Position numbers and translations under genes: made by a program
Shown here: positions 17,760 to 62,416 of the stretch, piece by piece
How positions within the stretch are numbered: position 1 is the stretch's first letter
Layout: each line of letters opens with the position of its first letter
NCBI GenBank assembly: GCA_039978775.1
Contig: JBDWAR010000023.1
Coordinates: 18,304 to 82,303, forward strand
Direction: 5' to 3'
DNA from: Luteolibacter sp.
GTDB lineage: Bacteria > Verrucomicrobiota > Verrucomicrobiia > Verrucomicrobiales > Akkermansiaceae
Length of the DNA stretch: 64,000 nt
The notes under the pieces: model-generated
What the model saw: only the letters and a program-made list of their open reading frames with translations
Database searches by the model: none
What the model was told of the DNA's origin: nothing

Positions 17760-18539
17760 ATGAACAAACCACTCACAACACTCGGAGCATGCCTGCTGAT
17801 GGCAGGTGCCGGACAGGCGGCGACTCTACTGAACTTCACCCAGTTTAACAATGATGCCACGGCGTTGGTAGATGGCTCCGCCACGGGTCTCAGCATTGTG
17901 AAGAATGATGTGGACGTGTCAGGAAACAATCAAATCCTCTTTAACGTCACCTATACCGGCGCGGATTTCAATGGTGACACGATCAACGACACCTTGACCT
18001 TTAAGCTGCGGGTTCAGGGTTACTCGGGTGGCACTGCGACTACGTCACTGCCGAATGGTGCCGATCAGTCTGGCACCGGTGGATCCGTTACCCTTGGAAC
18101 TGCGGCGGCGGTCGGGACACGCCAAACCACCTTTTTCGGGCAGACCACCACCATGCCATTCGGTAGCACCGTGCAGTTCAGCATCGAAAGCATTGCAGTG
18201 AATATCGCGGGTTATGGCGGAGCCTCCTTGGGTTTTGATGCCCTGCGAGTGGAGGAAGGCACATCTTCCGGGCATAGTAAACTCGCGATCATTGGTGTTG
18301 GAACAAACCTTACCGAACGTGAGTTCAATGACGGTTTTACCTTTAATCTGAGTTCCAATCGTCAAAGCGTCCTCTTTGTTAGCTCCGCACAAGCAGTCGG
18401 CACGACGGTTAGTCCGACAGCGTGGGGCATCGATCGACTTGGATTCGACATCAGTGTGGACGTGATTCCCGAGCCAAGCACCTCCGCGATGCTGCTCGGC
18501 GCTCTCGGCCTGCTGACGCTGCGCCGCCGCCGCAAGTAA
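17760..18539 (+). CDS. PEP-CTERM sorting domain protein
   Basis: Signal peptide; ends IPEPSTSAMLLGALGLLTLRRRRK. Confidence 0.93.
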   Translation: MNKPLTTLGACLLMAGAGQAATLLNFTQFNNDATALVDGSATGLSIVKNDVDVSGNNQILFNVTYTGADFNGDTINDTLTFKLRVQGYSGGTATTSLPNGADQSGTGGSVTLGTAAAVGTRQTTFFGQTTTMPFGSTVQFSIESIAVNIAGYGGASLGFDALRVEEGTSSGHSKLAIIGVGTNLTEREFNDGFTFNLSSNRQSVLFVSSAQAVGTTVSPTAWGIDRLGFDISVDVIPEPSTSAMLLGALGLLTLRRRRK

Positions 18540-18908: not shown

Positions 18909-19628
18909 ATGAAAAAAACACTAACAACTCTAAGCGCAGGCCTGCTGATGGCAGGCGCAGCACACGCGGCGACAACCGCTTTGAACTTGGCAGCCGCTGG
19001 TAACTACTCTGCTTCTGGGACAACCACCACGACTGAAACGATAAGTACGGCTGTCACGGTCTCGACCTCAGTGACTATCGGCACGACCGGTTCATTCGAT
19101 ATCGTGTATACCCTTGGTTCTACTGGGGGCGCGAATTCGTTCGTTAATTCGACTGGATCCCAATATGGAGTTGGGTCTGATACTGATATTTCCGCTCACT
19201 ATAGCACTCTCGAGGGTAGCGATGCTGAAGGCATTTCATTCACCGGTCTCACAGTCACCAATTTCGTGGCGGGCGACAGCGGACTCACAGTCGGCGACAT
19301 CACCGATTTGACATTCACGACCGTATCGTTCAATAATGTAAACAATGCTCAAGATGGTGTGAATATATCTTTCACCAGCTTTGGTGACGCCGGAGCATTC
19401 AATCAGAATCTAAGTGCAACTGGGACTCCCTACACGCATGATCTGACAGCTCAAGGTAATTACAGCGCACCAGCTACCAGCTTGTTTCTTGAGAATGACA
19501 ATGCTTTCGGCTCTAACCGCTGGGCTATCGAAGGACTTGAAGTCTTTTACAACATTCCCGAGCCATCCTCGACTGCTCTTGTCGGACTTGGCTTTGCTGG
19601 TCTTCTGCTTCGCAGAAAGCGTAACTAA
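18909..19628 (+). CDS. PEP-CTERM sorting domain protein
   Basis: Signal peptide; Thr/Ser-rich; ends IPEPSSTALVGLGFAGLLLRRKRN. Confidence 0.93.
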   Translation: MKKTLTTLSAGLLMAGAAHAATTALNLAAAGNYSASGTTTTTETISTAVTVSTSVTIGTTGSFDIVYTLGSTGGANSFVNSTGSQYGVGSDTDISAHYSTLEGSDAEGISFTGLTVTNFVAGDSGLTVGDITDLTFTTVSFNNVNNAQDGVNISFTSFGDAGAFNQNLSATGTPYTHDLTAQGNYSAPATSLFLENDNAFGSNRWAIEGLEVFYNIPEPSSTALVGLGFAGLLLRRKRN

Positions 19629-38472: not shown

Positions 38473-38507
38473 AAAAAGCCCTGCCGGGTTGATCCGGCAG
38501 GGCGTTT
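38473..38507. terminator. Bidirectional terminator
   Basis: AAAAA-GCCCTGCCGG-GTTGAT-CCGGCAGGGC-GTTT between convergent genes. Confidence 0.8.
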
Positions 38508-38525: not shown

Positions 38526-39149
38526 TTACTTCCTGCGGCGGCGCAGGAGGAAGATTGATGAGAGTGCGCAGAGCGCGGCGGAAGTCGGCTCAGGCACGAC
38601 CTGCCATGTGACCATGTCCTGGGACTTGCTGTTGGTGAGGTAGGTCAGCTGCACGCCGGTGAAGCTGGCTTGGTTGGCGAGGTAGGTGTTGGCCAGGTCA
38701 CGTGTTGCAGAGTTTACGCTGTCGATTTTCACGTCACCACTGGAGAGAGTGAAACTGCTAGATGTTTCCGCCAAGACTTCCCAGATCGCCCACTGGACGG
38801 CTGCGGCCTCAGAAGCGGACTGGGTGGATGCCAAGAAGCCCCCGACCAGGCGGGAGATGATGGCGGCGTTTTTCAAAGTAGAGATATCCTGGATCTGATA
38901 AGTCAGCGCCTGATTGGAACTGATGGTCTGCCAAGGATCGACACAGAACGCATCGAATGTGACATCTTTGAAGTTCATGACTCCAGAGTTGTAGCTTTTG
39001 TAGGTGGCACCGCTGACAAAACGTCCTTTGATGATCAATGAAGGCGCAACGTTGTTGAACGTAGTGTCGATGGTCTGGCCGCCGGCGAGGCCGGGGCATA
39101 ATGAGGTGGCCGCGAGAGCAGCGCACCATATAATGGTGTTCGTTTTCAT
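38526..39149 (-). CDS. PEP-CTERM protein with putative Cys-Gln thioester domain
   Basis: Signal peptide; AFCVD (C69), AVQWAIWE, SQDMV (Q177), then VVPEPTSAAL...LLRRRRK. Confidence 0.85.
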   Translation of the reverse strand: MKTNTIIWCAALAATSLCPGLAGGQTIDTTFNNVAPSLIIKGRFVSGATYKSYNSGVMNFKDVTFDAFCVDPWQTISSNQALTYQIQDISTLKNAAIISRLVGGFLASTQSASEAAAVQWAIWEVLAETSSSFTLSSGDVKIDSVNSATRDLANTYLANQASFTGVQLTYLTNSKSQDMVTWQVVPEPTSAALCALSSIFLLRRRRK

Positions 39150-39532
39150 GGGGGGAGGCCATGGGTTTGAGACTTCCCCTCAATAATATCAAGAATGACG
39201 ATATTTCGTCACTTTAGGTGGCTTGTTGTTTTTATAACTCGCTTGGAATGAGTGAGTTATATCAAGTTTACTTGTTGGTTCTGTTTGCGTCTGACAAATC
39301 CAGATGATCGGGAAATATCAACCATTTTGCAGATGGTTCGGGCTTTCGATCAGCGGCTGGCAGTCAGAAGAATTGCATCGGATCAATTCCGATGCACCGC
39401 GTGGAAGTGTATCCGGGAGGCTCGTAGCTGGTGGTGCGGCTGTGCACAGCATCGCTTCTTTCAAAACGTCGACACCGCTAGGGCAACGGATTATCCGTGG
39501 CTTAAGCTCGGTTTTTCTTGGTCAGAAACGTT

Positions 39533-42217: not shown

Positions 42218-42350
42218 GTGAAGCTTTCGCAGGGGGGGTAGCATATTCTGTGCGAAACACTAGAGCTTTCATGTGGGGGCCTGCCGCATGCGCCACCGGC
42301 GTAGGTGCTTTCGGATTGATCCCTCCCACAAATATCGTGCAAAGTGCAGC

Positions 42351-43535
42351 ATGGCTCAGGATTCATTTACCGAAACGACAACGACTGGCTGGTTCTCAAG
42401 GATCGCCGGAGCCTTCAAAGGGATCATCTTTGGACTGATTGCGATTCTCGTTTCGGTGGTTTTGCTCTGGGTGAATGAAGGGCGCGCGGTCAAGACGAAG
42501 AAAACCCTCGAAGAGGGGGCCAAAGATTTCGTGACAGTTTCTTCCGAAAAGGTGGATGCCGCCAATGAGGGGAAACTCGTTTATACGACCGGCCCGGCAG
42601 TCACCACCGCTACCTTGCGCGACGATGAACTGAATGTGAGCGCTGAGGCGCTGAGGCTGAAACGTGTAGTGGAGCACTATCAGTGGAAGGAAGAAAAGGA
42701 TTCGGAGACTAAGAAGAAGCTCGGCGGCAGTGAGGAGACGGTCACGACCTACAATTACGTGAGGAAATGGGTGGATGATCCCATCGATTCCTCGAGTTTC
42801 AAAAAGCCATCCGGGCATGAGAATCCGAAGGCTGCACTCGACGACATCACCATAACCGCGAGCCCGATTACCGTGGGTGCCTTCACACTTTCCAGCGGTC
42901 TGGCGGGAAGGATCGGGAATTTCACCCCGCTCGTTGTCGCCGAAGCTGCAGAAGTCGCCGAAACTGCAGTGGAGACTGAAACGATCGGAGGCAGGAAAGT
43001 ACGTGCCGAAGGCACTGGATACTACATTGGAAAAGATCCAAAAAAACCGGAGGTCGGGGACATGCGGGTCAGCCATGAAGTCGCCCTGCCGGGAGAGGTG
43101 AGTATTATTTCAAGGCAGTTCGGTTCGAGCTTCGAGCCATATTCTGCCGAGGCCGGAGGGAAAATTGAAATGCTATCGAGCGGCAAAGTAAGTGCGGAAT
43201 CCATGTTCGAGAGCGCCCAGAAATCGAACAAGATCCTCACCTGGATTTTGCGCGGAGCGGGTGCGCTGATCATGTTCATCGGCTTCTCCTCGTTGTTCCG
43301 TCCGCTCTCGGTCATCGCGGATGTCGTGCCGTTTATCGGCAATATCGTTGAGGTGGGAACGGGCTTCGTGGCCCTGCTGCTGACCATCCCGGTCTCGCTG
43401 ACGGTCATCGCCTTTGCATGGGTGTTCTACCGGCCACTCATCGGCATTCCGTTGCTCGTGGTGGCGGTGGCTGGATTTGTTTTCCTCATCCGCAAGATCA
43501 TGCAGGCGAGAAAGGGTCAGCTGACTACGGCCTAG
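42351..43535 (+). CDS. TMEM43 (DUF1625) family membrane protein
   Basis: FTETTTTGWFSRI, LWVNEGRAV, L.RVVEHYQWKE, W.DDPIDSSSF...GHENP, GDMRVS, C-terminal TM helices. Confidence 0.82.
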   Translation: MAQDSFTETTTTGWFSRIAGAFKGIIFGLIAILVSVVLLWVNEGRAVKTKKTLEEGAKDFVTVSSEKVDAANEGKLVYTTGPAVTTATLRDDELNVSAEALRLKRVVEHYQWKEEKDSETKKKLGGSEETVTTYNYVRKWVDDPIDSSSFKKPSGHENPKAALDDITITASPITVGAFTLSSGLAGRIGNFTPLVVAEAAEVAETAVETETIGGRKVRAEGTGYYIGKDPKKPEVGDMRVSHEVALPGEVSIISRQFGSSFEPYSAEAGGKIEMLSSGKVSAESMFESAQKSNKILTWILRGAGALIMFIGFSSLFRPLSVIADVVPFIGNIVEVGTGFVALLLTIPVSLTVIAFAWVFYRPLIGIPLLVVAVAGFVFLIRKIMQARKGQLTTA

Positions 43536-61582: not shown

Positions 61583-61792
61583 TTCGATACTCTCCCTATG
61601 GGGTTCCAGAAAATTTCGACCGCTTGGTAGAAAAAAATCAGTTTAATGAGTTATTTCAATGTGTTATTTGAGCGATGTGGCTACATTTCTCAGCTAACGA
61701 GCTGTTATCCTCTCTCAGTCCCCGTCTGAAAATAAATGATCCGCTCGGCAACCAAGCTCCAAGAAACCAAGAAACCCAGACAAATAAACCCC

Positions 61793-62416
61793 ATGAAAAT
61801 CAAAAACATCCTCACAGCGACAGTCATCGTCGGCGTGCTGGCAGCCGGTTCCGCGCAGGCGGCTGTAGTATTCAGCAGCATCGATAATACGGGTGGCACT
61901 CAAAGCAACCTCACCTCTCTCTCCGGCAAGGCCATCAATTTTGTGATCGGATCCGGGACTGACTACACACTGGACAACGTGGTTCTCAACATCGGAACCA
62001 TCAACGGCGCCGCCGCTCCAGTGGTGTCGATCTGGGCCAATGAAACTGGCGGCACGCCGATCGCCGGACCGAACCCATTGGAGACGCTTACTCTTTCCGG
62101 AACGTTCACTGCCAATAGCTTGAACACCTTCACTTCCACGGGTCTGTCACTGCAAGCTGACACGACGTATTGGCTCGTAGTCAGAGGTGAGAATACCAGT
62201 TCGTTTGCTTGGCTTGGCGATACTGATGCCGCTACTGTCGGAACGAATAACAATCGCCTATTCGGTAATGGGGGTAGCACTCCAGATACCTGGAACAGTG
62301 CTTCCGGTATTCTGAATGCTGCAACCATCAACGCCACCGCCGTTCCCGAGCCTTCTTCCGTAGGCCTTCTCGGACTCGGTGGCCTCGCGCTCATCCTGCG
62401 CCGTCGGCGCAACTAG
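61793..62416 (+). CDS. PEP-CTERM sorting domain protein
   Basis: Signal peptide; LQADTTYWLVV; ends VPEPSSVGLLGLGGLALILRRRRN. Confidence 0.92.
   Translation: MKIKNILTATVIVGVLAAGSAQAAVVFSSIDNTGGTQSNLTSLSGKAINFVIGSGTDYTLDNVVLNIGTINGAAAPVVSIWANETGGTPIAGPNPLETLTLSGTFTANSLNTFTSTGLSLQADTTYWLVVRGENTSSFAWLGDTDAATVGTNNNRLFGNGGSTPDTWNSASGILNAATINATAVPEPSSVGLLGLGGLALILRRRRN

Follow-up and report, generated by a model that had tools for sequence, protein, structure and literature searches.

A probable minimal thioester domain on a PEP-CTERM protein of Luteolibacter sp. (Verrucomicrobiota)

Here we report on a gene of Luteolibacter sp. that encodes a small secreted protein of 207 residues, the core of which is very probably a true homologue of the thioester domains (TEDs) of bacterial adhesins. 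The gene lies in a stretch of 64,000 nucleotides (hereafter the window; GenBank assembly GCA_039978775.1, contig JBDWAR010000023.1, positions 18,304 to 82,303). In the literature that we searched, up to October 2026, TEDs are described from Gram-positive bacteria (Firmicutes and Actinobacteria), where they sit on long sortase-anchored stalks (Walden 2015; Miller 2018), and no paper pairs a thioester domain with PEP-CTERM or with Verrucomicrobia. Judging from homology, a thioester probably forms between Cys69 and Gln177 of the protein. As to the chain of events as a whole, on balance we favour a stalk-less TED carried on an exosortase tail, which would be displayed at the cell surface or in the matrix and would bond covalently to amines through an amide. 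The parts of the gene on which this proposal rests are as follows, in coordinates of the window.

38526..39149, minus strand: whole gene, 207 residues plus stop, ATG start; signal peptide, minimal TED-like domain and PEP-CTERM sorting signal
39078..39149, minus strand: signal peptide, residues 1-24 (MKTNTIIWCAALAATSLCPGLAGG), with a basic n-region, a hydrophobic core and small residues at -3 and -1
38598..39077, minus strand: TED-like core, residues 25-184, from the AlphaFold2 (AF2) model, Foldseek and hhalign to class II TEDs
38943..38945, minus strand: codon of Cys69 (TGT; 'aca' on the plus strand, read by eye), the proposed thioester Cys, in F-C-V-D ([YFL]CΦζ) on strand C; from conservation and the alignment to SaTIE-TED
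38778..38798, minus strand: V118-Q-W-A-I-W-E124 on helix α2, the counterpart of TQxxΦW, aligned to ATQMLIWE of SaTIE-TED
38619..38621, minus strand: codon of Gln177 (CAG; 'ctg' on the plus strand, read by eye), the proposed thioester Gln, in S-Q-D-M-V (ΦQζΦΦ-like) at the start of strand Q; from its invariance and an alternative hhalign alignment
38529..38597, minus strand: PEP-CTERM sorting signal (TIGR02595), residues 185-207, consisting of VPEP, the transmembrane helix TSAALCALSSIFLL and RRRRK

Conserved motifs and sequence relationship to thioester domains

A preliminary description of the gene, made from its sequence alone, had pointed to a single cysteine in the mature domain (C69, within AFCVD), a VQWAIWE segment and an SQDMV with Q177 just before VPEP. 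These observations were confirmed by script, which placed AFCVD at residues 67-71, VQWAIWE at 118-124, SQDMV at 176-180 and VPEP at 185-188. Cysteines occur at positions 9 and 18 (signal peptide), 69 and 194 (C-terminal transmembrane helix) and nowhere else in the 207 residues, so that the mature domain has only one.

Conservation was counted in an alignment of 135 diverse relatives with 20-80% identity to the window protein. Gln177 is invariant (135/135), and Cys69 is present in 133 relatives, the remaining two having Ser. Nearly as constant are Trp123 (133/135), Asp or Glu at position 71 and an aromatic residue at position 68 (132/135 each), followed by Gln119 (128/135) and Glu124 (124/135). 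The Cys of the [YFL]CΦζ motif and the Gln of ΦQζΦΦ are the sole universally conserved residues of TEDs; a third motif, TQxxΦW on helix α2, is kept less strictly and is not fully conserved (Walden 2015; Miller 2018). In our alignment the invariant positions of the family exactly match these key TED residues, a pattern that is beyond chance. Mean-field direct coupling analysis of the contact between strands C and Q (268 sequences, effective number 204) gave an output dominated by gappy columns. The two relatives with Ser in place of the conserved Cys (P0157 and P0203, with GFSVD and SFSVD) still have the invariant Gln; a Ser-Gln ester could form in them, or they could be inactive.

The same alignment bears on a different reading of the conserved cysteine, in which the TED fold would hold no stable thioester and Cys69 would instead act as a catalytic or redox nucleophile, for example in a transglutaminase- or amidase-like reaction on the matrix, with Gln177 and Q119/W123 shaping the site. 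A conserved Cys near an acidic residue (D/E71), in a buried cleft, can be read as an active site, and the exchange of Cys for Ser seen in two relatives is common among nucleophile enzymes. Yet the family alignments show no general base, His or other, that is invariant, the invariant partner is a Gln exactly at the position of the bond-forming Gln of TEDs, and no enzyme family is matched by sequence or by fold. We consider this enzymatic reading improbable and the Cys-Gln thioester the better account of the two residues.

The window protein matches the Pfam TED family (PF08341) over residues 67-149 (E 0.0075), and a six-frame search of the genome gives 15.8 bits for the gene. Similarly weak matches, at E <= 1, are found in 30 of 30 close relatives, and 21 of 68 distant members match at E <= 0.01. 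Two homologues, P0224 (34.6 bits) and P0253 (25.5 bits), exceed the Pfam cut-off of 22, and phmmer against 1.84 billion representatives connects each of them with the window protein (E 1.6e-9 and 8.4e-9, respectively); membership of the window protein in the TED family therefore holds via these intermediates. With a broader profile of 68 members (A2), the top sequence of the PDB is SaTIE-TED (6fx6; E 0.0024), AFC being aligned with AFC and AlQlAIWE with ATQMLIWE.

As a yardstick for profile-profile comparison we used an alignment of six plasmid-borne class II TEDs, gathered by tblastn with the SaTIE segment, whose invariant C64 and Q235 stand 171 residues apart, the same spacing as between Cys296 and Gln467 of SaTIE. 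When the family was compared with these six by hhalign, a probability of 90.9% was obtained (E 1.2e-6), with AFC paired to AFC and QWAIWE to QMLIWE; a larger alignment of the family (A4) raised the probability to 92.3% (E 5.5e-7). The main alignment does not extend as far as the Gln, owing to the insertion of 75 residues that class II TEDs have at this place. In the first alternative alignment TYLTNSKSQDM is set against LVYTSGNAQKV, and Gln177 is collinear with the class II thioester Gln. A third profile (A3) matched only class II TEDs and CnaB domains in the PDB, so that there is no insertion-free profile alignment through the Gln. Two controls accompany these comparisons: the TED signal is absent from the three other PEP-CTERM proteins of the window, and the core without its tail matches no PEP-CTERM family of NCBIfam. 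Taken together, relatives above the Pfam cut-off, hhalign probabilities of 91-92% and SaTIE-TED as top PDB sequence bear out the TED homology proposed in the preliminary description.

Predicted fold of the core

The AlphaFold model of the full-length protein has a predicted local distance difference test score (pLDDT) of 83.5, with the core above 90, and its sole relevant match in the PDB is 6fx6. Refolding of residues 24-184 by AF2 with 135 sequences gave a pLDDT of 96.7 and a predicted TM-score (pTM) of 0.92, with the following elements.

Residues 25-43: strand A
Residues 51-61: strand B
Residues 66-69: strand C, Cys69 at its end
Residues 81-87: strand D
Residues 95-106: helix α1
Residues 112-127: helix α2, bearing Q119 and W123
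Residues 140-142: short strand
Residues 144-158: helix α3
Residues 159-168: linker of 10 residues from α3 to strand P
Residues 169-172: strand P
Residues 179-181: strand Q, Gln177 at its start

Published TEDs consist of an antiparallel beta-barrel of six strands together with a bundle of three helices in the order A-B-C-D-α1-α2-α3-P-Q, with the Cys on strand C, the Gln on strand Q and a Gln/Trp pair on α2. The six main strands and three helices of the model correspond one-to-one to this order, and the Cys falls on C, the Q/W pair on α2 and the Gln at Q. In a Foldseek search of the PDB the top three matches are 6fx6, 6fwy_A and 6fwy_C, with query-normalised TM-scores (TMq) of 0.49, 0.53 and 0.50 and probabilities of 0.85-0.92, and Cpa (2xi9) follows at rank 12 with a TMq of 0.52. 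All non-TED matches have a TMq of 0.23 or less, and only TED structures reach about 0.5. The TED-like fold of the preliminary description is thus upheld by the topology of the model and by Foldseek.

The model has no α0 helix of the class I type, with just residues 88-94 between strand D and α1, and none of the class II beta-sandwich (about 75 residues, with its slipknot), the linker from α3 to P being 10 residues long. The spacing from Cys to Gln is 108 residues in the window protein and 98-131 across the family (median 109.5). On the model, 'minimal TED' is a fair description of a core that dispenses with the distinguishing element of either class.

Several observations weigh against the proposal of a bond-forming, surface-displayed TED. 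The window protein by itself scores 17.1 bits with Pfam TED, below the cut-off; neither phmmer with the single protein nor the profile of close relatives (A1) found a TED among PDB sequences; and the alternative hhalign alignment that brings in the Gln is not significant on its own (E 0.47). The Foldseek E-values are modest (0.014-0.78), and class I TEDs other than Cpa are absent from its top 50 matches. Within the motifs, the T of TQxxΦW is replaced by V, F or L in the family, and a Ser instead of a hydrophobic residue precedes Gln177. As to the later steps, the route of PEP-CTERM proteins across the outer membrane and their attachment point are not established, and no conserved gene neighbourhood hints at a target, synteny being common only to the two nearest relatives.

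Some of these points would suit an ordinary PEP-CTERM surface protein that resembles TEDs only through the accidental agreement of three short motifs: the single-sequence Pfam match is below cut-off, and motifs as short as FCVD or QxAIW can occur by chance. Such a coincidence is, however, hard to reconcile with the profile-profile E-value of 1.2e-6 and the relatives above the Pfam cut-off, with TEDs as the only folds at a TM-score of about 0.5, or with an identical order of elements that carries the three motifs in the expected places. It would also have to produce near-invariance of exactly the two bond-forming residues (133 and 135 of 135), and the other PEP-CTERM proteins of the window show none of these TED signals. 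We regard chance resemblance as very improbable, and common descent with TEDs as the explanation to be preferred.

Gene context, sorting signal and relatives

Cleavage of the signal peptide is predicted after A22-G23-G24, leaving Q25 as the first residue. In the full-length model pLDDT is below 50 at residues 1-23 and the first strand begins at 25; among close relatives A22 is nearly invariant and Q25 invariant. A lipoprotein attached through C18 was ruled out, there being no lipobox (L-C is preceded by T-S) and no conservation of C18. The signal peptide leads directly into the core, and the core into the PEP-CTERM tail, so the stalk-less domain of about 160 residues that had been proposed stands, with its Cys-Gln spacing of 108.

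The tail scores 17.5 bits with the PEP-CTERM model TIGR02595 (cut-off 16). With Pfam PEP-CTERM (PF07589) it gets 14.3 bits, short of the required 20.7; among 30 close relatives, 29 are matched by this Pfam model at E <= 1. An exosortase is encoded in the genome (TIGR02602, 137.7 bits, cut-off 105.55), and with PF09721, which gives 162 and 82 bits, a second gene of the exosortase family is found. Sixty-one PEP-CTERM matches were counted in the genome. Sorting by exosortase, as first suggested from the sequence, accordingly has both its signal, which passes TIGR02595, and its enzyme. A link to PepA (NF033554) was considered and rejected, since the relatives' matches to it are no better than those to many other PEP-CTERM families and disappear for the tail-less core.

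Other exosortase cargo came to light in the course of this work. Three more PEP-CTERM proteins, small and secreted, are encoded in the window (17760-18539, 18909-19628 and 61736-62416, all on the plus strand), of which two stand in tandem; they pass PF07589, have no other Pfam domain and add to the roughly 60 candidate cargo proteins of the exosortase. Directly upstream of the second, divergent exosortase-like gene (G000 contig C18, about 181 kb) lies L004:50-1474 (plus strand), a gene with a partial match to TIGR03788, the 'marine proteobacterial sortase target protein' (238.9 bits, below the cut-off of 551.65); the two may form a dedicated cargo-enzyme pair. Finally, PDB entry 8s6c_A, deposited as 'Lactoperoxidase', ends in IPEPATLGLLMFGAAFLRKRR and was matched only by the tail of the family profile; by its sequence this is a PEP-CTERM-type tail in a crystallised or cryo-EM construct.

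The TED-like gene is single-copy in the 4.0-Mb genome, and two candidate transcription signals flank it.

39183..39212, minus strand: candidate sigma-70-like promoter (GTGACG, 18 nt, TG-TATTAT), preceding the ATG by about 34 nt, from a consensus match only
38478..38503, minus strand: GC-rich hairpin resembling a terminator, with a T run, 23 nt past the stop, between the TED-like gene and the convergent aldehyde dehydrogenase gene

The surrounding genes encode a molybdopterin oxidoreductase, the convergent aldehyde dehydrogenase and a GH63/MGH1-like hydrolase, housekeeping functions with no evident link to the TED-like protein. With a promoter-like site upstream, a strong hairpin after the stop and such unconnected neighbours, the gene looks monocistronic. 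Elsewhere in the window (42273-43535, plus strand) an open reading frame of 420 residues has a strong Pfam match to TMEM43 (278.9 bits) and represents, in a bacterium, a family whose best-known protein belongs to the eukaryotic nuclear envelope.

More than 200 close homologues were found, all 200-230 residues long and with the same layout. Those with a name come from Akkermansiaceae, Luteolibacter, Verrucomicrobiaceae and other Verrucomicrobiales, both isolates and metagenome-assembled genomes (MAGs), and their habitats include soil, freshwater, glacier-fed streams and algae. The nearest are annotated as 'hypothetical protein'. A relative from Luteolibacter algae (49% identity) bears the NCBI name 'thioester domain-containing protein', another (P0292) has precomputed matches to PF08341 and PF07589, and there is no dedicated NCBIfam family for these proteins. 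An exhaustive phmmer search of the 1.84 billion representatives returned, at E <= 0.001, 814 clusters of 50% identity, and almost all of these are 200-240 residues long. The family is nevertheless patchy, as only about 10 of 301 sampled genomes of the phylum have a match extending into the core.

Distant members end in PEP-CTERM (59), VPLPA-CTERM (18) or PEPxxWA-CTERM (16) tails. A homologue from a gammaproteobacterial MAG, Arsukibacterium sp. (L056:5881-6606, plus strand; 31% identity), has the same three motifs as TFCIEF, AAFQLALWE and SQNQLIF; its C-terminal tail, PVPVSAPATLGIFGLGLLALGLRRRQA, is not a PEP motif and may be a different sorting-signal variant. A further copy, 54% identical to the window protein in its best segment, stands on a 2.4-Mb contig labelled as an uncultured Cytophagales MAG (L051), which suggests either lateral transfer or a mislabelled bin. 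At 12 loci (L008:4763-5638, plus strand, and 11 others) a secreted protein of about 290 residues is encoded directly downstream of the TED-like gene and on the same strand. A conserved partner gene was ruled out, this neighbour family being seen in 12 of 50 related loci, in a sub-clade, and being absent from the window; the linkage may only mirror shared ancestry within the sub-clade.

Proposed function and comparison with known systems

From homology we envisage the following course of events. The protein would be exported by Sec and lose its signal peptide of 24 residues, and the core would fold into a six-stranded beta-barrel with a three-helix bundle. The thiol of Cys69 on strand C would then attack the side-chain amide of Gln177 on strand Q; ammonia would leave, and an internal thioester would arise autocatalytically beside Q119 and W123 of helix α2. 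Anchored in the inner membrane by its C-terminal transmembrane helix and Arg cluster, the protein would await cleavage at the PEP motif by exosortase, which would hand it on to the surface of the cell or to the exopolysaccharide layer. There an amine nucleophile, be it a Lys side chain, an amino sugar or a polyamine of a neighbouring surface, of a particle or of the cell's own matrix, would attack the thioester, leaving an amide to Gln177 and a free Cys69. The protein would thus be a covalent adhesin or matrix cross-linker. Since no stalk carries the domain outwards, its site of action would be the matrix, the cell surface or the immediate vicinity of the latter.

The choice of target is where we depart from the preliminary description, which had listed hosts beside particles and matrix. 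Hosts are the weakest part of that proposal; the relatives belong to Verrucomicrobiales that live in soil, freshwater and glacier streams or in association with algae, which makes the matrix, particles and other microbes likelier targets. The lack of a stalk, together with an environmental host bacterium, likewise favours the cell's own matrix, particles and neighbouring microbes over animal proteins.

These same features could be taken to mean that the thioester forms and serves something other than adhesion: a trap for small soluble amines or polyamines, a pH-dependent reversible latch, or an anchor in the cell's own envelope that complements exosortase. Nothing projects the domain from the cell, a free-living environmental bacterium offers no obvious host protein to bind, bonding by TEDs has recently been reported to be reversible and tuned by pH, and for most characterised TEDs the target is unknown. 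On the other hand, all functionally characterised TEDs act in attachment (SfbI to fibrinogen, the pLS20 TIE protein in mating-pair formation), and PEP-CTERM proteins are tied to surface and matrix phenotypes such as flocculation. We think a non-adhesive role unlikely, and prefer covalent attachment to surfaces or matrix.

More tentatively, the family as a whole could be a third, minimal TED class, lacking both α0 and the beta-sandwich, widespread in diderm bacteria and forming covalent bonds with foreign surfaces or with the bacteria's own matrix of exopolysaccharide or protein. This possibility we put forward with reserve. It would take in about 800 clusters at 50% identity, from Verrucomicrobiota and at least one gammaproteobacterium, with PEP-CTERM, VPLPA-CTERM and PEPxxWA-CTERM tails, and if true, covalent 'harpoon' adhesion would be known for the first time outside Gram-positives, and an exosortase cargo would for the first time have a chemistry assigned to it. 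What we describe is a known domain superfamily in a new minimal form, with a new anchoring system and in a new group of organisms; that databases already label some relatives as thioester-domain proteins (by NCBI name, or by PF08341 with PF07589) tempers its novelty. Should the proposal hold, covalent adhesion chemistry would extend to diderm environmental bacteria, and one exosortase cargo would gain a testable molecular function, most PEP-CTERM proteins being without a known role. The core would be the smallest natural TED, of use for dissecting how the bond forms autocatalytically and as a compact covalent protein tag, and would suggest a route to covalent cross-linking of biofilm or floc matrices.

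Among known systems, class I TEDs (SfbI-TED 5A0L, CpTIE-TED 5A0G, PnTIE-TED 5A0N, Cpa 2XI9) belong to Gram-positive TIE adhesins and pilus tips. The window protein shares with them the six-stranded beta-barrel, the three-helix bundle, the Cys on strand C, the Q/W pair on α2, the Gln on Q and a linker of about 10 residues from α3 to strand P. It differs in having no α0 helix, which in class I is an indel of 15-20 residues between strand D and α1 and is replaced here by 7 residues, and in its Cys-Gln spacing of 108, compared with 129-153 in class I. It also has no LPXTG motif, no isopeptide or ester stalk and no repeats, and it comes from a diderm host with an exosortase tail. Class II TEDs (SaTIE-TED 6FX6, EfmTIE86-TED 6FWY, BaTIE 6FWV, the pLS20 TIE protein) are its best matches in both sequence and fold and, like it, have no α0 helix, whereas the beta-sandwich insertion of about 75 residues and the slipknot that define class II are missing from the window protein, and class II spacings are 171-204. 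A survey of Gram-positive fibrillar adhesins has described TED-like clusters without the beta-sandwich insertion, but on stalks.

Two further systems share only part of this arrangement. PEP-CTERM substrates such as the flocculation protein PepA of Zoogloea and Aquincola have the same signal peptide, PEP motif, transmembrane helix and Arg cluster, in genomes that likewise hold an exosortase and many PEP-CTERM genes; their passenger domain is unrelated to that of the window protein, whose matches to NCBIfam PEP-CTERM families come from the tail only. The complement and alpha2-macroglobulin family, including the alpha2-macroglobulins of Gram-negative bacteria, has the same chemistry as that proposed here: nucleophiles react with a thioester formed internally between Cys and Gln. 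Its thioester domain is all-alpha, with a CGEQ motif, and is unrelated to the bacterial TED fold, and its members are large, multidomain proteins whose thioester is exposed by proteolysis, unlike the small, single-domain protein described here.

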